From Candidatus Thorarchaeota archaeon (lineage in GTDB: Archaea; Asgardarchaeota; Thorarchaeia; Thorarchaeales; Thorarchaeaceae): a DNA stretch of 64,000 bases. A program made the translations under genes and the position numbers. Where the stretch lies: positions 1-64,000 of the forward strand of contig JBHLRZ010000010.1 in assembly GCA_048882045.1 (NCBI GenBank), in the 5' to 3' direction. Every line of letters starts with the position of its first letter. Positions within the stretch are counted from its first letter, which is position 1. Shown here in pieces: positions 32,809 through 46,268 of the stretch. The notes under the pieces are model-generated. The model did not search any database. It saw nothing but the letters and a program-made list of their open reading frames with translations, and was not told where the DNA came from.

Positions 32809-34278
32809 GTGATGATGATGGATAGAATGAAGGTCCTTGGTATTTTGATTGTTGGTGTTCTGGTAGCTTCAATTGTTGTTATAGTGATCAATCTGCCCCC
32901 AACGACTCCACATGACAATGGAGATACAACACCACCTATCATCACAATAACAGGACCTTCTGCAGAGGCAGTAGTATATGGTGCAGAAGCTATTACCTTC
33001 TCAGCGACAGATGAGAATGGAATACCAAGAGCAGAGATATACATCGATGGTGATCTGACCGCAGTAGGGCAGTCATACAACTGGAACACACTAGGAGTTG
33101 CAGACGGACCCCACACAATAATGTGTCGCGCGAGAGATCCTAGTACAAACTGGGCAAACCAAACAATCAGCGTAACTGTGAATAACTCAATCGACTTCTC
33201 ATCGTCAGACTTTGACCCTATTTTCAAGGTCATGGCATACAACATTCAGGAGTCAGGTATCAATCCGGATTGGAAAGAGGTTGTGATGGAAGAGAACGCA
33301 GACATAGTCATGTTTGTGGAAACCGGATTTTGGGACGATGATGGTAGTGCAGACATGATTGCAGCTGTTGAAGAGTTCAACACATACTTCTCAGAGGAAA
33401 CCCCCTATGAAGCATTCTGTACACAAGGGATTGCTTTCGAAACTAGTGGCGAAGCTGTGTTCAGTAGATATCCGGTCTTGAGGATAATCCAAATCCAATC
33501 AGTTTCACTAGATGACGAAACTGGTTATGATGTTACGCATGACTTCCTTGATGCTGTCATAGATATCAATGGAACAAGTGTTCATTTTGTTGGAGTTCAT
33601 CTAAAGGCGGCAGGTGGAGAAACAAACGAGAATAGAAGAGAATGGGAGAATGAGGGCATCATCAACTATTTCGACTCGCTCGGAAACGTACCAATCGTGT
33701 ATCTCGGAGACTTGAACTCTGCATCACCTGTCGATGTTGGACCCCTAGCACCATTCTGGGACCCTGGGGTTGGCCCAATGACCATGTTGATTGACCCAGA
33801 CGACCCAACATATGGACAGTATTCTTCTGAAATCCACAACTTTACTGATGTTTTTCGCACTTTGAATCCAACTGATCCAGGTTATACCTTTGGGCACACA
33901 TTTACTCCTCAGACAGCCCGGATTGATTACATAATCACGAATGATTTCTTTGAGGACAAACTGATTAACTCAACTGCAGGTGACACTGCACATGCCTACA
34001 CTGGCGCAGACCATTATTCTGTCGACGCATGGCTAAACTGGAGCGGTGGGATGAATGTTTCAGCTCTGGCATACTCACCAAATGATTCAGTAATCACAGA
34101 CCTCAATCTAGATCTGCGAATCTATACACCAGAAGTGTCTGTTGATGTCCCAGTGGAATCATCAGCTCTGCGAGAAACAGGGTCCTCATTGAGGATGATT
34201 GCAAGTGAATCCACAAAGCTGTCAGCATTTTGTTTGGTAAAGACCATTGGCGGTTTGATCTTCAAAATATTGCTATGA
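32809..34278 (+). CDS. Membrane-anchored Ig-like + endonuclease/exonuclease/phosphatase (EEP) protein
   Basis: VMAYNI, GVHL, LGDLN, RIDYI and ADH motifs; N-terminal TM and Ig domain. Confidence 0.87.
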   Translation: MMMMDRMKVLGILIVGVLVASIVVIVINLPPTTPHDNGDTTPPIITITGPSAEAVVYGAEAITFSATDENGIPRAEIYIDGDLTAVGQSYNWNTLGVADGPHTIMCRARDPSTNWANQTISVTVNNSIDFSSSDFDPIFKVMAYNIQESGINPDWKEVVMEENADIVMFVETGFWDDDGSADMIAAVEEFNTYFSEETPYEAFCTQGIAFETSGEAVFSRYPVLRIIQIQSVSLDDETGYDVTHDFLDAVIDINGTSVHFVGVHLKAAGGETNENRREWENEGIINYFDSLGNVPIVYLGDLNSASPVDVGPLAPFWDPGVGPMTMLIDPDDPTYGQYSSEIHNFTDVFRTLNPTDPGYTFGHTFTPQTARIDYIITNDFFEDKLINSTAGDTAHAYTGADHYSVDAWLNWSGGMNVSALAYSPNDSVITDLNLDLRIYTPEVSVDVPVESSALRETGSSLRMIASESTKLSAFCLVKTIGGLIFKILL

Positions 34279-37223
34279 GGTCCATCAAGACTGACCAAAA
34301 TTCTAAGGTCTTTCATCCGTTGAATAATATAGTGTGCTTCCTTTTCAGCTGGTTCGAGGGTTTCACTGTTTAGAACTAATTCGACACCAATGAAGAGCCC
34401 ATGTCCACGGACATCACCGATGATTTTGAATGTCTTCTGCATGTCGATCAAACGTTCCTTGAGATAATTGCCAACCTCTAGAGCATTCTTTTGTAGATGC
34501 TGATTCTCAATCTCATCCAAGACAGCCATTCCCACAGCACACGAAACAGTGTTCCCACCAGTGGTACTGAAGAACTCCATTCCAGTTGTGAATGATTCCG
34601 CTATCTCAGGGGTGGTAATTACAGCACCAATGGGATGTCCATTACCTATTGGTTTACCTAAGGTCACAATGTCAGGTACAACGCTTTGGGTTTCAAAGCC
34701 CCAGAAGTGGGTACCCATCCTGCCAAACCCAACTTGGACCTCATCAACAATACAGACACCACCAGCTTTTCGAACATACTTGAAGGCATTCTTCAGATAT
34801 CCATCAGGGAATACTATCTGACCACCACACCCCATGAGAGGTTCACAAATGAATGCAGCCAATCCTCGACCTTGTTCTTCAAGACTTTTGGTTACCTCAA
34901 GGATGTCTTCGGCATACTTCTTGCCTGTCTTGAAACCTTTAAACTCCCCACGATAGGGATTAGGCATCCGGACAACATGGACATATGGAGGAGCTCCTTC
35001 TCCCCCTGGGCCATCATGTTTGTAGGAACTGATGTTGATGAGTTCCCTGGTGTTTCCATGATAGGCCCCATCAATCGCAATGATGTCTTTCTGTCTAGTA
35101 TGGGTTCTTGCCAGTCTCAATGCCAATTCGTTGGCTTCACTCCCACTATTTACGAAGTAACAAACACTGAGTTTGGCAGGGAACTTGGAAGTCAAACGTT
35201 GGGCATACTTGACTAGATTGTCATGGAGGTAGCGGGTGTTGGTGTTCAGGACAAGAGACTGTCTACTCAGGACCTTAACAATCCGAGGGTTGCTGTGACC
35301 CACATGAGGAACGTTGTTTCTCATGTCGAGGTACTGTTGTCCATTCTCATCATACAGATACTGCATGTATCCTCGAACTATCTTGATAGGAGTCCTATAT
35401 GACACGCTCAAGGATGGTCCAATGTGTATCTTTCTAATCTTAAGGATCTCTTCACTTGTCAGAGGTGATTCAGGAAACAATGAGTCTGGAATCTGAAGAA
35501 TCAGGTTGGGATCAGGACATATGCTGAGCCAGACATCGAGCTTGCTTGGTGGTGCGACACCAAAGAGGTCACCTTTCTGACCCATCATGTCAACAATGAG
35601 CTGGAAGTGAAGATGAGGAGGCCAACCTCCATTGTCGGGATATTCTCCAACCCGCCCGAGCTGTTCCCCTTTCTTTACTTCTTTCCCAGCAAAAAGTCCT
35701 GAGAGAGAGTCTCTTGTTAAATGACTGTAGAGTACATAGAAGGGAGGTCCATCTGGATCAGTCTTGTACTCAACCACAATCGTGGGGCCATTATCGTACG
35801 GTCTTGCATTGTCCTGAAAACTATGAATGACACCATCATGGATAGAGTAGATAGGAGTATTTCTCTCGACGAACAGGTCAGTTGCTATGTGTACAGTGCG
35901 GCTTTCGCCCCCTGAAGAAAGGTACTGGTCACCACTATAGATGAGTCTAGGTTCATTGTATCTACCTATTCCAATCTTAACACCAGCTTTGGAGATTTGC
36001 TCTGAAACAAGTCCTTCAAAGGATAGGTGGTTTGCTAGATAATGAGGGGATTTAACATCAATAGATCCAACACTAAGATCAATCACAGTACTGTTTGATT
36101 CAGAGATTGGTGTGCCGATTGGACTTGTGAATTGGTCCGTGTTTTTCATAACCCACTCTGTGACCCTTTGTGAATTCGGACAGGGTTCAAATCCAGCCGC
36201 CTGACGAAAACAGTAAGCAGCAAACCTAGGGTGCACTTCAGCAAGTCGAGTCAAGAGCTCCCATGCTCTCGCCTCACTGATGATTAGATATTCATTATCA
36301 GGTTCAAGTGTCTTCTGATACGCAGAAACAGACACGCTTGTCGCAAGTCTTGTACAAGCAAGTGGAAAAAGTAGCTCGATTTCCTGCTCAGTGATGGGAA
36401 ACACAGAATGATATCCACTGATTATCTTCTGGGCAGTACCAATTGGGTCATCTTTATCGAGCATTGCATAGCTTATCGCGATTGCTAATTCGTTAATTGT
36501 ATGAGAGTAGACCATATCCCCGAAATCAAGAATGCCAAAGATTCGTCCATCATCATCATGGGGATTGTCGATAACAACATTATCATCGTTCGTGTCATTG
36601 TGAATGATACTCTTCCGTAGTACAACCATTTGCGGCACGACGATGGTCTGATACATATCCAAATAGTAGTCGACAAGCTCCCTCTTGTCTTGCTCAGGGA
36701 TATGCTCCTTGAAATTTGCGATAGTAGAGCTGGCTTTCCCTAGGTCCCAATAGAAATCTCTGTGAGCTGCTGGGTGATTGAAACCTGCTAAACTCTTACT
36801 TAAAATCCCGACAAAGCGCCCAAAATCGTTGAGCAAGTTTGGTGAATGCGGTTTCACTGAGGACATGACTTTCCCAGGCAAGTAGGAAATCAATCTCACG
36901 AAATGTGAATTCCCTTCGGGAGTTTCAATCTGTGCTATCTCTTCACCTGAAGTGGTTTTTTGGACTGTGGAGGAGATTGGTGACTTGCTTTTACCAGCCA
37001 AATACTTCAATGCACTGACCTGGAGATCTAAGGTTTCTCGCTTCTCAGAAATAGTTGAAATCTTCAGAACGTACTCGTCCCTGGTTTCAGTAACTAGGTG
37101 AAAATTCTGATCCCGTTCGCTGGGTAATTCCTGTAGACTGCCTGATAGAGCATATAATGAACTGATGATATCACCGGCATATCCAGCATCGATTTGGGGG
37201 CGTTCTGGGTCTCTAGCATCCAA
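34122..37223 (-). CDS. APH-like kinase / M23-like / class III aminotransferase fusion (hydroxylysine kinase + phospho-lyase-like)
   Basis: IHNDTNDDN and LDFGD (kinase); HIATDL and PHLHFQ (M23); [10 protein letters not shown] and TLGKPIGNG (PLP Lys). Confidence 0.9.
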
Positions 37224-37361: not shown

Positions 37362-37868
37362 TCATTTAGAGTTTAGACCCCTGAGGTCCAGTGAGTCATA
37401 GTACGTTTCCATTGCGAACATAGTGAGAGTCCTATCTACTTCGGGCAGCTCACGAAGGTAGTCAACAATGAACTTGTTCATGGCATCGATGTTCTTGGCT
37501 CGAACCTTGAGTAAGACATCATATTCACCACTCAGTACATGAACACTCTGGACAAGGTGGTGCTGGGCGATGGTCTGACAGAACTCACGTTGCGACAGTA
37601 CCTTCGACTTACCTGGTACTCTGTAACGTACTGTCACAAGAATGAAAGCCAAGGTTTCACGATCGAGCTTCTTTGGATCCAAGACTACTGTAAATTTGTC
37701 GATTATCTCTTTAGACTGTAGGTTCTTTACCCGTGTGTGCACTCTTGAGATGCTTCTCCCAACTTTCTTCGCAAGCTCTGCGTTGCTCATCTTCCCATCC
37801 TTTTGTAATAGAGCGAGGATTTTGAGGTCAGTCTTGTCTATCTTTGAATCGGTAATTTTTTCCGCCAT
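37362..37868 (-). CDS. Lrp/AsnC-family regulator
   Basis: IDKTDLKILALLQKDGKMSNAELAKKVG; SGEYDVLLKV. Confidence 0.93.
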   Translation of the reverse strand: MAEKITDSKIDKTDLKILALLQKDGKMSNAELAKKVGRSISRVHTRVKNLQSKEIIDKFTVVLDPKKLDRETLAFILVTVRYRVPGKSKVLSQREFCQTIAQHHLVQSVHVLSGEYDVLLKVRAKNIDAMNKFIVDYLRELPEVDRTLTMFAMETYYDSLDLRGLNSK

Positions 37869-37885
37869 AGGATATAAATTAGGAA

Positions 37886-37910
37886 AAAATCGGAAATACT
37901 TTCCGGTTTT
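37886..37910. promoter_or_regulatory. Palindromic Lrp-type operator candidate
   Basis: AAAAT-CGGAAA-TAC-TTTCCG-GTTTT between the divergent lrp and glnA genes. Confidence 0.6.
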
Positions 37911-37952
37911 AGCAGGAAAACAATATAGCCAGTTATAACTTACAGAGGGTCA

Positions 37953-38049
37953 GAGAGAGGCGATTACTGCCTCATGACATGAAATAATTGGAAACTCAAG
38001 TTTCATCGCCCCACCAGGGCTTCCGCACACTTGAGGCAGGCACTCTCTC
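37953..38049 (+). ncRNA. Structured 5' leader of glnA (candidate cis-regulatory RNA)
   Basis: Nested stems GAGAGAG/CTCTCTC and CTGCCTCA/TGAGGCAG enclose smaller hairpins; TATA-like TTATAA at 37933-37938. Confidence 0.45.
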
Positions 38050-38077
38050 AGCATTACAATGAAGCCAGAGGAATCCT

Positions 38078-39382
38078 TTGATGACAACAGACCTGAGAAA
38101 GCCAGAATTCCTACGACTGATCTTTACCGACATTTTAGGACACACAAGGAGCATAGAGGTCGGAATGGACAGGCTTGATGAAGTTATTACACATGGATTG
38201 GCAATCGATGGGTCATCAGTTCCCGGCTATGCATCCGTTAACGAAAGTGATCTACTTCTCCTTCCAGAAAGCGCCACCCCCACCCTCCAACCTTGGGACC
38301 CAGCAGCAGCATTCATCATGTGTGGAGTCCATGAAACTACTGGAAAACCGCATCCACGAGATCCACGCAACATCCTTCGAAGAGTTGCTACAAAAGCTGC
38401 TGAGATGGGTCTTCAGCTTAAAGTAGGAAGCGAGCTAGAGTTCTTTACCCTGAGCAGACATACAGATGGATCAGTCGGGCCCTACGACCAAGGAGGTTAC
38501 TTCTGTTCACAGCCTGCTGATGGATCACTGGACCTTAGACGTGACATAATCAGGACATTGAACGCTCTCCATATCCCCACAACATCTCATCATCATGAAG
38601 TTGCTAATGGACAGAACGAAATCGGCCTTCATTACAGGACTGCTGTTACTGCTGCAGATGACATCATGTTAGCCCGGACTGTGATTTCTGAAGTGGCCTA
38701 TAGACAAGGACTCATTGCGACCTTCATGCCCAAACCATTCTCAGACCAGAATGGATCAGGTATGCACCTTCATCAAAGCATATGGGGACTCGATAGCACA
38801 AGAAACCTCTTTACTTCTGAAAAGATAGGTAATATCTCTCAACTCGCTACACACTATGTAGGAGGTCTCTTGAAACATGCGACTACTCTTGCTGCTGTGG
38901 TCGCACCTTCAGTGAACTCATACAAGAGATTGGTTCCGGGATTTGAAGCTCCGACAAAAGTCGCATGGGGATACAAAAACCGTAGCACAATGGTTAGAGT
39001 ACCATACTTCAACGGTTCTGCAAAAGCGGCCAGAGTGGAGCTTCGTTGTCCAGATGCAACCTCATCGCCACATCTTGTGATTGCAGTGGTGCTTGCAGCT
39101 GGGCTAGATGGTATCAGCCAAAAGATAGAACCACCGACACCAACAGATGAGGACCTGTTCGAGGGAAAGTCTGATACAGAATCACTCCCAGGTTCGCTTG
39201 AACTGGCACTCACTAATCTGGAGAATAGCAAAGCGATGAGGGAGATTTTGGGTGGGACTGTCGTTGACAAGCTAGTAGAGCTGAGACGGAAAGAGTGGAG
39301 AGACTATGTTAAGGCTACTGGAAATCCTGGAATATCCGAGATTACCTCTTGGGAGATTGATAGATACCTACATGTAAATTGA
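38078..39382 (+). CDS. glnA: Glutamine synthetase type I family
   Basis: IDGSS, ELEF, HHEV, FMPKP, NGSGMHLHQS, NSYKRLVPGFEAP and RVELR motifs. Confidence 0.88.
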   Translation: MMTTDLRKPEFLRLIFTDILGHTRSIEVGMDRLDEVITHGLAIDGSSVPGYASVNESDLLLLPESATPTLQPWDPAAAFIMCGVHETTGKPHPRDPRNILRRVATKAAEMGLQLKVGSELEFFTLSRHTDGSVGPYDQGGYFCSQPADGSLDLRRDIIRTLNALHIPTTSHHHEVANGQNEIGLHYRTAVTAADDIMLARTVISEVAYRQGLIATFMPKPFSDQNGSGMHLHQSIWGLDSTRNLFTSEKIGNISQLATHYVGGLLKHATTLAAVVAPSVNSYKRLVPGFEAPTKVAWGYKNRSTMVRVPYFNGSAKAARVELRCPDATSSPHLVIAVVLAAGLDGISQKIEPPTPTDEDLFEGKSDTESLPGSLELALTNLENSKAMREILGGTVVDKLVELRRKEWRDYVKATGNPGISEITSWEIDRYLHVN

Positions 39383-39442
39383 TTCGGACTTCCAAAAGAC
39401 TTGTATCTCGCCGCTTTACTTGAGCTGTACGGGAGGACATTA

Positions 39443-39868
39443 ATGATGCCCGGTTTCGAAAGTAAAGAACAGTTTCAGCAAGTATTCAACAAGTTCTGGG
39501 AAAAGGCAACTCAGCAATCTGAGATAATAGAGAAGCTTACAAAGTCACAGGTTGTTGTCAGGTTCGATGTTGAAGACCCAGAAGTCCACATGACCATCAA
39601 CTTCAGAGACCCTGGCCCGAACGGAGAGATAGGAACACTAACCTTTGATAGTGATGTAGAACCTGAAATCTCAGTCTGGTCTAAATCAGAAACTACGAAC
39701 AAGTTCTGGCAAGGCAAGCTCAACACGACTGTAGCCATGGCACGAGGGCAGGTCAAGCTTGATGGATCAGTAGCTAAGGCTCTTGGACTGCTATCAAAAA
39801 TCAAGCCACTATATGCTTTGTACCCGGACGTGCTCAGAGAGGAAGGCTTAGACCATATGTTGTTGTAG
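39443..39868 (+). CDS. SCP2 sterol/lipid-binding domain protein
   Basis: FWQGKLNTTVAMARGQVKLDG; GGAGGA precedes ATG 39443. Confidence 0.85.
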   Translation: MMPGFESKEQFQQVFNKFWEKATQQSEIIEKLTKSQVVVRFDVEDPEVHMTINFRDPGPNGEIGTLTFDSDVEPEISVWSKSETTNKFWQGKLNTTVAMARGQVKLDGSVAKALGLLSKIKPLYALYPDVLREEGLDHMLL

Positions 39869-40196: not shown

Positions 40197-41054
40197 TTAT
40201 TTCTCATTAGGTTTAGTACGACCGTAGAGACGGCCAGTTTCTTCCTCAGTCATCTCGAAACTGTGCTCAGGGTCTGGAAACTTTCCCTCACGGACTTCCT
40301 TTGAATAATCAGAAACTGCATTCTTGATCATTTCTCTCACATTAGCGTATTTCTTAACGAACTTTGGTTTGAAGTCTTCAAAGAGACCCAGCATATCCCA
40401 GAGTACAAGGACCTGTCCATCACAGTATGGTCCCGCTCCGATTCCAATTGTGGGGATGTTCACCGACTCTGTAATGACCTTAGCAGTTTCGCTTGGAACA
40501 AGCTCTATGACCATCGAGAATGCTCCTGCTTCTTCTAGTTGAACAGCTTGGTCGATCAGCATTTTGGCCATATCAGCTGTACGACCTTGGATACGGTATC
40601 CGCCCAGTTGGAATATGGACTGAGGTGTAAGACCGATGTGGCCCATGACTGGAATTCCTACATCCACAATTGACCTAACGATGTCCACCACAGGTTTAGT
40701 TCCACCTTCGATCTTGACAGCTTCAGCACCACCCTCCTGCAACATGAGCCCACAGTTCTCCAATGCCTGTTGGGTACTGACTTTATAGGACATGAAAGGC
40801 ATGTCCCCCACAATCAGACTATCTGGTCTGGCTCTGGCAACCGCGGCACAATGATGGATCACATCTTCTAATGTAACAGGAATTGTGCTCTCATAACCTA
40901 ACAAGGAGTTCCCTACTGAATCTCCCACTAGAATCATGTCCACTCCCACCTCACTTAGTATCGATGCTGTGGGAGCATCGTAGGAAGTGAGCATCACTAT
41001 CTTCTTACCTTTCTTCTTCATGAGACGGATACTGTGTGTGGTTTTTCTTGCCAA
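40197..41054 (-). CDS. panB: 3-methyl-2-oxobutanoate hydroxymethyltransferase
   Basis: MLTSYD, LVGDS, GDMPF, VKIEGG, GHIGLTPQ and IGIGAG..CDGQVLV motifs. Confidence 0.96.
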   Translation of the reverse strand: MARKTTHSIRLMKKKGKKIVMLTSYDAPTASILSEVGVDMILVGDSVGNSLLGYESTIPVTLEDVIHHCAAVARARPDSLIVGDMPFMSYKVSTQQALENCGLMLQEGGAEAVKIEGGTKPVVDIVRSIVDVGIPVMGHIGLTPQSIFQLGGYRIQGRTADMAKMLIDQAVQLEEAGAFSMVIELVPSETAKVITESVNIPTIGIGAGPYCDGQVLVLWDMLGLFEDFKPKFVKKYANVREMIKNAVSDYSKEVREGKFPDPEHSFEMTEEETGRLYGRTKPNEK

Positions 41055-41155: not shown

Positions 41156-44068
41156 TTACAGGTCAATACCTTTCCTTCTGAATCGACGTTTATACCACTC
41201 CATTCCTCCAATTGCTGGGATTGAAGCAGCAATACATACAATCCAATCGTTGATTGTGAGTGGTGCAAAGTAGAACTCGAGTCCATACGGAGCGAGAATC
41301 TCCTGAGCCAGTGGAACGTACATCAGTAGGTAGTGTGCCAGATAGATCAGACCAATCAGAATAACGAATATCCATGTACCAGGCTCTCGAATGCTCTCCG
41401 ACAGAGGCATGTTGATTCGCCGAATGATCAGGACCATTGTACTCTCGACAATCAGAATCACTGAGAGTAACATCACCGTGGCTTTGAAGACAGGGTCTAT
41501 CACACCATAGTATCCCAGGTTATTCTCAGGATATATGGGTACAATCCCACCCCAAGCTGTCAGAGTTATTGCGTAGACTAAGGTAGCCCCAATGGTCATT
41601 AGGAAAACATTCAGTGCCATGAACTTTGCTAGATTCCGGGTTATGATCTCTTGACTGTCTCGAGGTTTGTCCTCCATTGCCCGTGGCGATGTCCTGTCGA
41701 ATACCAACGCAAGACCGGGGAATGAGTGAGTAGTAACCACCAAGTAGAGACTCTGCCACTGTGATAGCATGTTGATCCATTCAGGCAGAATGAACAGGGC
41801 TCCAAAGAAGATGATACTCTCAAACAGGTTTATGGCTACATAGAAGTAGATCATTATTCTGATCTTGTTGAAGAGACCCCTTCCCTGATGCACACCAGAC
41901 ACGATAGAAGCAAAGCTGTCATCAGTGATAACAAGATCTGCAGCCTCCTTAGCTACGTCCGTACCTGTGATTCCCATGGCGATACCAGCATCACTCATGG
42001 CAAGAGCAAGGGCGTCATTCACACCATCACCAGTCATGGCCACGACACGGTTTTGGTCTTGGTAGCGTTCTACAATCACCTGTTTGTGTTCAGGGTTTAC
42101 CCTAGCGAAAACATTGGTCCTGGCAAAGTCCTCATCACTGATTGAGTCTATCTCAGTACCTTCAACAGCAAGTGAGCTCTCGCCAAAAATACCTAGGTCA
42201 GTTGCTATTGTCTTGGCTGTTGCAGAAGCATCTCCAGTTATCATGATTACATTGATTCCTGCACTGTGACACTCTTGAACAGCTTCACGAACACCCTCTC
42301 GTGGTGGGTCTACAATGCAAGCAAATCCTAGATAGATCAAATCCTTCTCAGTCTTCTCACGAGCGTCTTTGCCTGTCGGAACACTATCCAAGTGTCGATA
42401 AGCGATTGATATCACTCGATAGCCTTTAGCAGCAAAATCATTGGTCATCTCCCTTACACGATTGACAACGTCGGGAGATATCTTCGAGGGAGAGTCCTTC
42501 CCATCAATGTAGGTGCATTTGGTTATCAGGACTTCAGTTGCACCTTTAACGAAGGCCACAAACTTTTTGCCATCCTTGCATATCTTAGACATTCGTTTCA
42601 GTTCTGACTCAAATGGAAACTCCTCCACGACCTCGTACTTCTTGAGGATGGCTTCTTCATCCAATCCGCTCTTTCGGAACATAGTCAGGAGTGCTGCATC
42701 AGTCGGGTCGCCCAATGGCCTCCAGATTGTGCCTTGGTCAGGTATCTCCTCCCTAATGATCTCGGAATCATTGTTTATACCACCACACACAACAAGTCGA
42801 TAGAGACCTTTCCAGGAGAATATGTCCTTCACCTCATCCTCCTCTATGCTGATGGTTGCCGGGTCAGCAGCGCCTTTGAGTAGATAGATACCACCTGTCG
42901 GCTCATAGCCATCACCCTTTACTGAGTATAGGTTATGAGTGTCCCAGATGTACTTGACCGTCATCTGGTTGCGTGTCATAGTGCCTGTCTTGTCGCTGCA
43001 AATGACACTCACTCTTCCAAGGCTCTCGACTGCAGAGAGGTCTCGAATGATGACTCCCTTCTTGGCCATAGCTAGAACACCAGTAAGAAGAACTATGGTC
43101 GTGAGCAGAGGAATGTTGATGGGCATGATGGTCATTGCACGTGTGATTCCTTCTTGAGCCCGTGACATGATTGAATCAATATTGAGATCTATAATTCCAG
43201 TACCATAGACAATCGGATAGAGAAAGACCTGCCAAATGAGTGAAACTGCCATTAGTACAATTGCTGCGATTCCGAGATACTTTGCCAACAGGTTGGTTTT
43301 CTTTCGAAGTGGAATATCCCCTGTATTGAGTTCTCCAAGTGTGCCTTGAATCTTGCCAATCTCGGTCCTTCCTCCTGTTGCAGTCGTGACAACAGTCGCC
43401 ATCCCAGTGGCCACGTAAGAACCGAAGAAGACCATGTTTCGCATGTCAGTGAGAGGCGCATCTTTTCCAATTATTGCATCGTTATCCTTAATGGCTGGAA
43501 CGCTCTCACCAGTCATTGATGCCTCATCTGTGGTCAGGTTAGAACAGCTGATGATTCTACCATCAACAGGGATTCGATCACCCTGCTCAAGGATAACGAT
43601 ATCCCCAGGAACAGCGTCCATTGGAGGAACACTCATCTCAGAACCATTTCGAATCAATCGAGCCTCTCCAGCTGACAGTTGTTCCAGAGCCTCTAGTTTC
43701 TTCTGTGCACGGAACTGCTGGACAATAGCTACTAGGGCATTTACAGCAACGACTCCAAGCCAGACAAGAGCTTGCGCCATCTCGTTCTCGTCTGACGGGA
43801 AAAGGTATGCGATGAGTATCAAAGCAAATGAGCTGACGATGTAGATCGTAATGAGCCAGTTCAGAATCGGAGCGATGTAGACTTTCCAAAATGGCCCTCG
43901 AATCCGTGGGATAGTGTTAGGGCCAAATTCCTCAAATCGTGATTTTACATCAATATCCGACAGACCACGGGCAGGATCTACTTTGAGGACCTCGTATACA
44001 TCCTTGAGGGGCATGGAATGGTAGGGGAGAACGGATTCGTCTTGTGTGATGGCGTCTTCTTCCGACAA
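41156..44068 (-). CDS. P-type ATPase on a P2A-like scaffold with atypical transport site
   Basis: TGES, DKTGT, KGA, DPPR, MITGD and TGDGVND motifs; about 10 TM; TM4 reads PINIP. Confidence 0.93.
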   Translation of the reverse strand: MSEEDAITQDESVLPYHSMPLKDVYEVLKVDPARGLSDIDVKSRFEEFGPNTIPRIRGPFWKVYIAPILNWLITIYIVSSFALILIAYLFPSDENEMAQALVWLGVVAVNALVAIVQQFRAQKKLEALEQLSAGEARLIRNGSEMSVPPMDAVPGDIVILEQGDRIPVDGRIISCSNLTTDEASMTGESVPAIKDNDAIIGKDAPLTDMRNMVFFGSYVATGMATVVTTATGGRTEIGKIQGTLGELNTGDIPLRKKTNLLAKYLGIAAIVLMAVSLIWQVFLYPIVYGTGIIDLNIDSIMSRAQEGITRAMTIMPINIPLLTTIVLLTGVLAMAKKGVIIRDLSAVESLGRVSVICSDKTGTMTRNQMTVKYIWDTHNLYSVKGDGYEPTGGIYLLKGAADPATISIEEDEVKDIFSWKGLYRLVVCGGINNDSEIIREEIPDQGTIWRPLGDPTDAALLTMFRKSGLDEEAILKKYEVVEEFPFESELKRMSKICKDGKKFVAFVKGATEVLITKCTYIDGKDSPSKISPDVVNRVREMTNDFAAKGYRVISIAYRHLDSVPTGKDAREKTEKDLIYLGFACIVDPPREGVREAVQECHSAGINVIMITGDASATAKTIATDLGIFGESSLAVEGTEIDSISDEDFARTNVFARVNPEHKQVIVERYQDQNRVVAMTGDGVNDALALAMSDAGIAMGITGTDVAKEAADLVITDDSFASIVSGVHQGRGLFNKIRIMIYFYVAINLFESIIFFGALFILPEWINMLSQWQSLYLVVTTHSFPGLALVFDRTSPRAMEDKPRDSQEIITRNLAKFMALNVFLMTIGATLVYAITLTAWGGIVPIYPENNLGYYGVIDPVFKATVMLLSVILIVESTMVLIIRRINMPLSESIREPGTWIFVILIGLIYLAHYLLMYVPLAQEILAPYGLEFYFAPLTINDWIVCIAASIPAIGGMEWYKRRFRRKGIDL

Positions 44069-44291
44069 TGCTTCTACCTCTCAAGTAATATTGCTGTACA
44101 AAGACAACAGATAAATCAAACTCGATGGTCCTACCTTCAAGTCCGACAACAGCTGTTGAACGACCGAACCTTTTGAAGCTTTTCCGTTTCATTTTTCAGA
44201 ACATTTCAACCATTACCTGTGCCGATAGGTTCTTGAGGCCTCATGAGTGTTCTCGAATGCCGCACGCGGTAGATACTCATTGGTGCAGACA

Positions 44292-46268
44292 ATGTCAATG
44301 GACTATTACTGGCAGACCACCGACACTCGTAAATCCTCGTCGGAGGGACGACGGATTGTCGCAGCAATCATTATTCTCATGATAGTAATTTCTACAGGGA
44401 TTGTACTCATTCTCCAGGGGGACTTCCCAGGTAGTACTACAAGTGGTAGTCCAGTGAGAGTCGCAATACTAGACTCAGGTATCGACCAAGACTTTTCACT
44501 GCAGGGGCGAGTCGTAGAGGAGAAGAGTTTCATTGAGGTCCAATACGGATACGATCAACCCGACCAAACAGTCACAGATGCCAAACCCGAAAGTGTCCCC
44601 CATGGAACGCTAGTGGCTAAGTTAGTGGCAGAAACACCAAACGCGCAAATTGTAAATGCAAAAGTTTTGAGCTCGGATGGAACTGCAACGACTCTGGCAC
44701 TCGTGGCTGCGATATACTGGGCTGTAGAGCAGAACTGCAGTGTTATTACGATGAGCCTTGGTTCTTCACCTGTGCACAATGACCCATTGGCAGAAACATT
44801 GGAATGGGCCTTCTCTAGGGGAGTTGTCATTGTGTCATCAGCAGGCAATGAAGGAGAAGGAGGCGTCGCTGGAACGAGCATATCATCCCCTAGTGTCTTT
44901 GAACACTGTATATCAGTTGCAGCGCTTTATGAAACCGGTGAGCCTACAGAGTTTTCATCGACAGGTCCGACCAGGTCAAGATACATGAAGCCAGACATCA
45001 GTGCTCCAGGATGGGCGAACATTGCAGGAGGAGTTTACTACGGGACGAGTTTCGCATCTCCCAGGGTTGCTGGAGCGGCCGCTGACTTGATTGGATATTG
45101 CGTGACGAACAACATCACCTATACTCCTGGATCCATTATAACTGCTCTATTGAAAGGAGCCACTCCCGTAGGCAACTATCCGAGCTACATTGTCGGAGCA
45201 GGAAGGCTCAATGTCCAGAACTCACGAAACCTCATCAGCGAGAATAGTGTGGATGGGGATCTTCCAGCTTTCAGTCTAGCTTTCCCTGGAGAGCTGCCAA
45301 TAGATTTTGAGAGGCTCTTTCTAGGGGACACTTACAGATTTGATATTAGGCTCATAACCTCAGGATACACTACTTTTAGTGTCAGCATAACTGGTGACCC
45401 ACTTGGGACCATAGATATCCCATCTACAGTCGTAGTAAATCAGACACGGATTTTTCCTATGACTGTGAACATACCCAGTTCTGGTCTTTCTTCTGTTGAT
45501 GCAACCATTACGTTCACATCTTCTGTTTTTGGATCGTCTGAGCTATCACTGTTGTTTGATGTGACAAGTCCTGTTGCAAGAGTTGCCTTTGACATCAGTC
45601 ATACTGGATGGTCCATTGATTCATACTATGGTCAGTTCAGAGAGTTTTACAAAGAGTTGATTGATAATGACATCTCTGTTACAGAGATACGCAACAGCTC
45701 TGAAACAACACTCTCGTTCCTGCAGGAGTTTGATTCTGTCGTGATCCTAGATCCATGTGTGTACAATGTCAATGAAACAAACCCACTGAATCCCGAAGCA
45801 TTCACCTTGCCCTTCTCATCCTCTGAGAAGGCAGCATATGAGGATTATTTCAATTCGGGAGGTGGAATCTTTGTATCATCTCTCTCATCTGGTGCAACAA
45901 ACCTTACGCAACTCAACAATTTTCTCGACTGGTCTGGATTCGAGATCATAGATTCAGAAATTCCATCATCATCAGAAACTGATCCTATAATTATCGACAA
46001 CATTGACACCCATATCATCACCCAAGGAGTTTCTGGTTTTCATTACCTTGGAGCACCAATCTCAATTCCCAGTGGTGGAAATAGGCTCGCTAGATATGGA
46101 GCGATGCCAGTCATGGGCTATCTAGAGGGAGGCGGAGGAGGAAGACTCGTAGTAACAGGTTCTAATTATATGATAGACAACTATGCTTTCCTTGGAGAAT
46201 ATGGACCTGGGGATGATGCACTGATTGCACTCAGGGTTGTGCTTTGGACTTCAGGACTAATTGTCTAG
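44292..46268 (+). CDS. Membrane-anchored S8 subtilase with C-terminal GIFT/DUF4350-like domain
   Basis: Triad ILDSG, HGT, GTSFASP with SAGN; C-terminal RVAFDISH...YFNSGGGIF...GRLVVTG. Confidence 0.88.
   Translation: MSMDYYWQTTDTRKSSSEGRRIVAAIIILMIVISTGIVLILQGDFPGSTTSGSPVRVAILDSGIDQDFSLQGRVVEEKSFIEVQYGYDQPDQTVTDAKPESVPHGTLVAKLVAETPNAQIVNAKVLSSDGTATTLALVAAIYWAVEQNCSVITMSLGSSPVHNDPLAETLEWAFSRGVVIVSSAGNEGEGGVAGTSISSPSVFEHCISVAALYETGEPTEFSSTGPTRSRYMKPDISAPGWANIAGGVYYGTSFASPRVAGAAADLIGYCVTNNITYTPGSIITALLKGATPVGNYPSYIVGAGRLNVQNSRNLISENSVDGDLPAFSLAFPGELPIDFERLFLGDTYRFDIRLITSGYTTFSVSITGDPLGTIDIPSTVVVNQTRIFPMTVNIPSSGLSSVDATITFTSSVFGSSELSLLFDVTSPVARVAFDISHTGWSIDSYYGQFREFYKELIDNDISVTEIRNSSETTLSFLQEFDSVVILDPCVYNVNETNPLNPEAFTLPFSSSEKAAYEDYFNSGGGIFVSSLSSGATNLTQLNNFLDWSGFEIIDSEIPSSSETDPIIIDNIDTHIITQGVSGFHYLGAPISIPSGGNRLARYGAMPVMGYLEGGGGGRLVVTGSNYMIDNYAFLGEYGPGDDALIALRVVLWTSGLIV

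Follow-up and report, generated by a model that had tools for sequence, protein, structure and literature searches.

A candidate P2-derived subfamily of P-type ATPases from Asgard archaea with PINIP and a histidine at the transport site

The window examined here is a 64,000-nucleotide stretch of a Candidatus Thorarchaeota genome (assembly GCA_048882045.1, contig JBHLRZ010000010.1, positions 1 to 64,000 of the forward strand). It contains a gene for a P-type ATPase, hereafter called the pump, in which the ion-binding segments of transmembrane helices 4 and 6 (TM4 and TM6) carry the motif PINIP and a His residue, respectively. Relatives that share this type of site are called the family. The open reading frame (ORF) is uninterrupted over all 970 codons, and its features are listed in Table 1. 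The TTG start codon is judged to be genuine because orthologues share the N-terminal sequence MSEEDAIT, and several of them lack a Met at position 19. The translation carries the full P2/P3 set of Pfam domains (Cation_ATPase_N, E1-E2_ATPase, Cation_ATPase, Hydrolase, and Cation_ATPase_C). It also has the hallmarks of the P-type superfamily, namely DKTGT, an A-domain motif of the TGES type, a GDGxND hinge, and the nucleotide-site Lys of KGA, and the superfamily model TIGR01494 scores 265 bits against a cutoff of 62. A preliminary description of this DNA had called the catalytic motifs TGES, DKTGT, and TGDGVND intact and P2-like, and all three are confirmed in the translation. Within TGES, G187 and E188 are invariant among 30 family representatives, and T186 is at least 90% conserved; the Lys of KGA is likewise invariant in this set.

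Table 1. Coordinates of the pump gene, its motifs, and the adjoining features in the window.
Feature	Residues	Position	Strand	Remarks
P-type ATPase gene of the PINIP/His family		41156..44068	-	Intact; 970 amino acids; TTG start; ten predicted TM helices
TGES, A-domain dephosphorylation motif	186-189	43502..43513	-	P2/P3 form, not the P4 form DGET
PINIP, TM4	316-320	43109..43123	-	I317 = SERCA E309, N318 = G310; unwound part of TM4
DKTGT, phosphorylation motif	359-363	42980..42994	-	Invariant in the family
TGDGVND, hinge motif	679-685	42014..42034	-	G680, D681, G682, N684, and D685 invariant in the family
INLFE, TM5	746-750	41819..41833	-	N747 = SERCA N768, E750 = E771; site I ligands kept
VVTTHSFP, TM6	777-784	41717..41740	-	V777 = SERCA N796, T780 = T799, H781 = D800
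Glu875, TM8	875	41444..41446	-	Aligned with SERCA E908 (site I)
panB		40197-41054	-	Downstream of the pump gene
Intergenic region between the pump gene and the S8 subtilase gene		44069..44246	.	178 bp; divergent
S8 subtilase gene		44247-46268	+	Divergent to the pump gene

The transport site was compared with that of SERCA, in which E309, N796, and D800 bind Ca2+; D800 contacts both ions and Glu309 is the gating residue. The equivalences of N747, E750, V777, T780, H781, and E875 were obtained by aligning the C-terminal 241 residues with SERCA2 in HMMER, and SERCA1 numbering is used throughout. In this alignment, the site II ligands E309, N796, and D800 are all replaced, while the site I set of N768, E771, and E908 survives and the Asp shared by both sites has become His. 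By alignment, then, site II is erased in the pump and site I is kept with an Asp-to-His exchange. The preliminary description had located PINIP exactly, and its reading of a retained Asn and Glu in TM5 and of Val and His in TM6 agrees with the alignment. Its conclusion that Ca2+ cannot be bound in the canonical manner also holds, since all three of these residues are substituted. The TM8 residue E875 extends the set of residues it had named.

An AlphaFold2 model built on a 30-sequence alignment (predicted local distance difference test score [pLDDT] 82.6, predicted template modeling score [pTM] 0.74) has ten TM helices. As in SERCA, the helix of TM4 unwinds at residues 315-318 (PINIP) and that of TM6 has a break at 779-782 (TTHS). 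A Foldseek search of the PDB gave SERCA1/2, SPCA1, and LMCA1 as the nearest folds, followed by Na,K- and H,K-ATPase; these pumps account for all of the top 50 matches, with TM-scores up to 0.79, and the nearest sequences with solved structures are LMCA1, SPCA1, and SERCA. Because the protein combines the Cation_ATPase_N and Cation_ATPase_C domains with ten TM helices and its nearest folds are P2 pumps, sequence and predicted structure together assign it a P2 scaffold. The specific NCBIfam equivalog models all remain below their cutoffs. Models for P2 pumps rank highest, with scores of 449 bits for PMR1 (TIGR01522, cutoff 798.3), 407.2 bits for SERCA (TIGR01116, cutoff 703.4), 400 bits for type IID, and 391 bits for type IIB. 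The P3A model TIGR01647 reaches 306.4 bits against a cutoff of 615.5. The P5 model TIGR01657 gives 198.5 bits against 618.25, and the motif of the pump is PINIP, not the PP(E/A)LP of P5 pumps.

The altered site is strongly conserved. The best 120 database relatives of the pump are Thorarchaeota/Promethearchaeota proteins with 66-89% sequence identity. MPINIPLL is invariant in 121 Thorarchaeota orthologues (query included, down to 66% identity), and TM6 reads TTHSFP in 120 of these 121 and TSHSFP in the remaining one. Beyond the orthologues lies a deep clade of family members with 33-65% identity to the pump. Its extent was defined by a HMMER scan against 1.84 billion representatives. Approximately 35 clusters at 50% identity, down to a score of ∼510 bits, have P-[IVLFW]-[NSM]-[ILF]-[PVI] in TM4, N..E in TM5, and His in TM6. 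The scan then shows a sharp break, below which every hit has PEGLP, N..E, and N..TD at the corresponding places. Among the 121 orthologues, the conservation of PINIP and TTHSFP is far beyond chance.

For column statistics, 30 family members were aligned jointly with 99 pumps that have PEGLP. At the position of E309, the family is hydrophobic in 30 of 30 sequences, whereas the PEGLP pumps have Glu in 98 of 99. The G310 column is Asn in 27 of 30 members (Ser in two, Met in one) versus Gly in 93/99. The N796 column holds Y, F, V, I, or T in the family but never Asn, which is present in 97/99 PEGLP pumps, and the D800 column is His in 29/30 (the exception, P0143, has Gln here and Ser at G310) versus Asp in 94/99. 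The site I columns behave differently. Asn at N768 occurs in 26/30 members and 95/99 PEGLP pumps, and Glu at E771 in 30/30 and 92/99. The E908 equivalent is Glu in 28/30 members, whereas the PEGLP pumps have Gln in 55/99 and Glu in 39/99. This higher frequency of Glu in the clade is as expected if site I works.

Not every residue highlighted in the preliminary description shares in this conservation. PINIP is invariant in Thorarchaeota and the His is family-wide, but Thr at the T799 position is present in only nine of 30 members (93/99 in PEGLP pumps). In Thorarchaeota orthologues, the position of the TM4 Arg (R310, in ITRAMTIM at residues 308-315) is occupied by Arg, Ser, or Lys, and the wider clade does not conserve it either. 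The broader view that the changes are concerted in an otherwise intact gene fits the data well, as orthologues share both PINIP and TTHSFP. The aligned orthologues are without PEGL, and their sequences indicate that the site changes are under purifying selection and are not the product of lineage-specific decay. Such a concerted and conserved replacement of site residues makes a substrate other than Ca2+ likely, as had been proposed.

Phylogenetic analyses support a single origin of this site. The trees were drawn without P4, P5, or eukaryotic P2A-D reference sequences. In a FastTree phylogeny of 83 representatives, a branch with support 100* and a length of 0.42 separates all sequences that bear the signature from the rest. 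A rooted tree (IQ-TREE quick, LG+G4) was obtained with Asgard P3A H+-ATPases above the TIGR01647 cutoff as outgroup. In this tree the family is monophyletic, with a Shimodaira–Hasegawa-like approximate likelihood ratio test (SH-aLRT) value of 100 and a stem length of 0.40, and it is placed within or beside the radiation of prokaryotic PEGLP (P2A-like) pumps, where support for the backbone forks is 81 or less. The earliest branches of the family (PWNFP/PWSFP and P[VF]NFP) already carry Asn (or Ser) at G310 together with the Glu and the His. It follows that the rebuilding of the site was a single event at the base of the family, after which the site was retained.

These data bear on an earlier suggestion that the substrate is possibly a lipid and that the protein represents a prokaryotic step toward P4 flippases. 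In its favor is the Ile at the position of E309, which is the single point of agreement with the PISL motif of P4 flippases. Ile in place of the TM4 Glu also occurs in P3A H+ pumps (PIAMP), which need the TM6 Asp. Asgard P3A pumps are likewise hydrophobic at this position (PVALP), so such a residue is not a mark of flippases. The remaining evidence runs against a flippase. The A-domain motif is TGES and not DGET, the second proline of PxxxP is kept as in P2 and P3 pumps, and the hinge is GDGVND. The PhoLip_ATPase_N and PhoLip_ATPase_C domains are not found by Pfam on the pump, and the P4 model TIGR01652 scores only 94.9 bits against a cutoff of 431.25, making it the weakest of the P-type models listed, below that for heavy-metal P1B pumps (232.6). 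No P4 or P5 chain is present among the top 50 folds, and the Glu residues of TM5 (invariant) and TM8 (conserved) are of the kind that bind cations. Moreover, the clade falls within or beside the prokaryotic PEGLP pumps in the rooted tree, albeit on a weak backbone. A conserved partner gene was not found among 54 flanking ORFs at 15 loci from nine Asgard families, where no Pfam family occurred in more than three, and CDC50/LEM3 (PF03381) was not found in the pump's own genome by a search run without a positive control. We conclude that the pump is in all probability not a lipid flippase. A lipid as substrate, another giant-substrate pump, or an intermediate on the way to the eukaryotic P4 enzymes would each be exceedingly improbable.

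Family members are widespread in Asgard archaea. A profile search recovered them in 90 of 151 Asgard genomes (E = 0), and three more genomes have clear fragments, which corresponds to ∼60%. They are present in 12 of 27 sampled GTDB families of Asgard archaea; the other 15, several with four to seven genomes each, have PEGLP pumps only. Scores on the family profile must be read with care. It gives ordinary PEGLP pumps 800-908 bits (E ∼1e-240 to 1e-273), even those from unrelated archaea reaching 800-883 bits, and true members of full length score at least 1077 bits. When E-values alone are used, 144 of the 151 genomes appear positive, but the loci at 880-908 bits are ordinary PEGLP pumps, and such counts therefore overstate the spread of the family. 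Named members come from Thor-, Hel-, and Odinarchaeota or from 'Promethearchaeota', and one Korarchaeota cluster is nested in the core clade. No member at E ≤ 1e-290 was present in 201 genomes from the phylum of an unrelated archaeal genome.

Many genomes have two to five family copies, often in tandem. Tandem pairs are common in some Asgard families (for example L119, at G129:C86:1961-7938, as well as L121 and L136), and they often join a copy of the PINIP/INLFEG/LH type to one of the PINLP/LNLMEG/VH type, both of which keep the Asn, the Glu, and the His. The genome that carries the pump is 93% complete and encodes six P-type ATPases. Three are P1B pumps (CPC, CPC, and CPH) and two are canonical P2A-like pumps (PEGLP/NFDE/NLATD and PEGLI/NFAE/NLVTD), of which the pump gene is, by sequence comparison, a paralogue. 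That the genome already has canonical Ca2+-type pumps speaks for another function of the PINIP/His pump.

The best account of these features is a functional ion pump of the P2 type, derived from P2A, that goes through an ordinary Post-Albers cycle with a rebuilt transport site. We consider this account likely, and the substrate is probably a small ion other than Ca2+. D359 would be phosphorylated, TGES would promote dephosphorylation, and alternating access would be provided by the unwound segments of TM4 and TM6. Hydrophobic side chains would fill the cavity of the former site II, with I317 in place of E309 and V777 in place of N796. The site I residues N747, E750, and E875 would be joined by two new nitrogen-bearing residues, N318 (for G310) and H781 (for D800). 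We infer that one small cation per cycle would bind to this Glu/Glu/Asn/Asn/His pocket from the cytoplasm and then be expelled; transport direction, stoichiometry, and the ion itself all belong to this inference. A cation is indicated because the TM5 Glu is invariant and the TM8 Glu is conserved. H781 could either coordinate the ion directly or act as an intrinsic counter-ion that also carries protons. A His has been reported to act as an internal counter-ion in P1B-4 pumps (Palmgren 2023, PMC10654040).

Which ion might be moved can be narrowed by comparing the site with those of known pumps. Public annotations of orthologues are generic ('cation-translocating P-type ATPase') or bear the automatic label of the Joint Genome Institute (JGI), 'Ca2+-transporting ATPase'. 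In accord with this label, a pump for Ca2+ (or Mg2+) with a noncanonical single site I would make use of the retained N768, E771, and E908 ligands. However, D800, the residue that contacts both Ca2+ ions of SERCA, is His, and the gating Glu309 is hydrophobic. To our knowledge, all characterized single-site Ca2+ pumps (LMCA1, SPCA, and PMCA) use site II and not site I. LMCA1, the closest relative with a solved structure, is the opposite case to the family: in the alignment its residue at the E771 position is Ala, and N..ND is retained in TM6. Two canonical PEGLP pumps of the same genome also speak against Ca2+, and Mg2+ is disfavored by the distribution of CorA, which is present in 98 of 151 Asgard genomes, has two copies in the pump's own genome, and shows no phyletic complementarity to the family. 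Transport of Ca2+ or Mg2+ is therefore improbable.

A proton is a second candidate. In this scheme, the pump would have become a proton pump independently of P3A, with E750 as proton acceptor and donor and H781 as the neighboring basic group, so that the Glu750-His781 pair would be a charge-swapped analogue of the TM6 Asp and TM5 Arg of P3A pumps. The site does contain one invariant carboxylate and a titratable His, and the TM4 motif has the same P-hydrophobic-x-hydrophobic-P form as that of Asgard P3A pumps. In TM1, N70 is Asn in the joint alignment where PEGLP pumps often have Asp. The Thorarchaeaceae lack P3A above the curated cutoff (0/26) yet have the family. Nevertheless, the five conserved polar residues, including the strengthened E908 equivalent, exceed the needs of a proton relay. 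The pump is also no P3A enzyme by its features, since P3A pumps keep the TM6 Asp (D684 of AHA2) where the family has His, there is a Glu in TM5, and TIGR01647 stays below its cutoff. Taken singly, proton transport is possible but on balance unlikely.

Bona fide P3A pumps were found in 25 of 151 Asgard genomes, sometimes in two to four copies (TIGR01647 700-1077 bits, about 820 amino acids). Examples are L137-L140 (G041:C7, G058:C89, G034:C20, and G109:C74), which read PVALP in TM4, ETIRV in TM5, and LLND in TM6.

The third candidate is a borderline divalent metal (Mn2+, Fe2+, Zn2+, Co2+, or Ni2+), which a P2-derived exporter would bind through the putative ligands His781, Glu750, Glu875, Asn747, and Asn318. 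From general coordination chemistry, one His with two Glu and two Asn is a typical set for such metals and a poor one for Ca2+, Na+, and K+, and the exchange of Asp for His specifically adds a nitrogen donor. Genes in multiple copies, often in tandem, are also frequent among detoxification pumps. Of the NCBIfam models, the one that fits best is that of the Ca2+/Mn2+ PMR1 type, although its score is far below the cutoff. We regard metal export as being just as possible, and as unlikely when considered by itself, as proton transport; on chemical grounds these two are ahead of all other candidates. Among the other substrates, Na+ or K+ is rather improbable, and an organic cation or another compound slightly more so; both are placed a little ahead of Ca2+ or Mg2+.

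A bolder reading, which we advance tentatively, is that these proteins form a distinct, unnamed subfamily of effectively 'site-I-only' pumps that arose once, is largely confined to Asgard archaea, and moves on a P2 scaffold, by a chemistry not known from any P2 pump, either a proton, by a Glu-His pair that evolved independently of P3A, or a transition metal, by a His/Glu/Asn site. Several points weigh against the main account or against particular ions. The clustering of N318, N747, E750, H781, and E875 in one pocket is deduced from the SERCA alignment, and His seldom serves as a ligand of Na+, K+, Mg2+, or Ca2+. For a proton, many genomes have P3A pumps together with the family: across the 151 genomes they are found mostly in lineages that have the family too, and above the curated cutoff they are present alongside it in lineages f9, f12, f13, f14, f16, and f22, so that phyletic complementarity is lacking. 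For a metal, none of 150 family members has a metal-binding terminal domain, a CxxC segment, or a His- or Cys-rich stretch. A conserved metalloregulator was not found among the flanking ORFs of 15 loci, nor was a riboswitch or other Rfam family near 16 pump loci, and the own genome already possesses three P1B pumps. Finally, a regulatory or nontransporting role is formally conceivable.

The neighborhood of the pump gene is conserved to some extent within Thorarchaeaceae (f1). The S8 subtilase gene is adjacent to the pump gene in 21 of 22 loci of this family and panB in 16 of 22, and neither arrangement is present at any of the loci outside it. Farther along the window, at positions 37362-39868, a gene for an Lrp/AsnC regulator is divergent to a glutamine synthetase gene (glnA), which is followed by a gene for a small SCP2-domain protein. 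The SCP2 gene adjoins the pump gene in three other Thorarchaeaceae loci (L100, L105, and L111) and in none outside Thorarchaeaceae, and glnA was next to the pump gene in none of 50 other loci searched. Positions 34122-37223 on the minus strand hold an ORF of 1033 amino acids with an unusual three-domain architecture, in which an APH-type phosphotransferase (residues 30-268), a Peptidase_M23 domain (444-544), and a class-III aminotransferase (611-1010) are fused. Many genomes of another Asgard family, f12, have a divergent CorA-like gene at a distance of 10-13 kb from the pump gene; it scores 84-97 bits on PF01544, and examples are G067:C3:112039-112926, G060:C2:131416-132306, and G122:C34:38817-39707. 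This proximity probably reflects synteny within the lineage.

Subfamilies of P-type ATPases are defined by the chemistry of their transport sites, and each known subfamily moves a substrate of its own. For a further family of this kind, the PINIP/His clade offers a concrete candidate that is old, strongly conserved, and found in ∼60% of the sampled Asgard genomes. Its site mirrors that of known single-site Ca2+ pumps, with site I kept, site II erased, and His at the pivotal D800 position. Identification of the ion would add a new solution for selectivity to a very well-studied machine, and would supply a missing piece in the ion physiology of those archaea that are most closely related to eukaryotes. 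The clade has no bearing on the origin of lipid flippases.

A search of the literature yielded no biological paper with the string 'PINIP', and papers on Asgard P-type pumps describe no such site. A study of Asgard transportomes mentions only 'a putative Ca2+ ATPase' in all five proteomes (PMC7997004). A recent overview of P-type ATPases recognizes P1-P6 only, asks whether more exist, and points to 'undescribed diversity' in prokaryotes; no family with PINIP or a TM6 His is among those it covers (Palmgren 2023, PMC10654040). The clade thus appears to be an undescribed, Asgard-centered offshoot of the calcium-pump family, in a comparison that does not take in the FUPA families of TCDB, and we propose it as a candidate for an unnamed P2-derived subfamily.

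Among known systems, prokaryotic and eukaryotic P2A Ca2+(/Mn2+) pumps (LMCA1 of Listeria, 6zhf/6zhh/9euq; human SPCA1, 8iwp and 7yag; SERCA1/2) are like the pump in their domain set and ten TM helices. They have in common with the family TGES, DKTGT, TGDGVND, the N..E of TM5, and the unwinding of TM4 and TM6 at the same places. The family differs from them in that it lacks the Glu of PEGL and the TM6 Asn or Asp, and has His at D800. Like the family, P3A H+-ATPases have a PxxxP motif in TM4 with a hydrophobic side chain where SERCA has E309 (PVALP versus PINIP), a single intramembrane acid/base pair, and no second cation site. In contrast, they possess the TM6 Asp and the TM5 Arg (ETIRV...LLND), are only ∼820 amino acids long, and form a separate clade. 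With P4 flippases (PISL, DGET, and CDC50-dependent), the sole likeness is the Ile that follows the TM4 proline. CtpE of Mycobacterium, which represents P6, the latest proposed family, keeps PEGL and has Ile at the position of the TM6 Asp (PMC10654040). Like the family described here, CtpE is prokaryotic, has a P2-like scaffold, and has its TM6 Asp replaced, whereas the family has lost PEGL and has His at this place in TM6.

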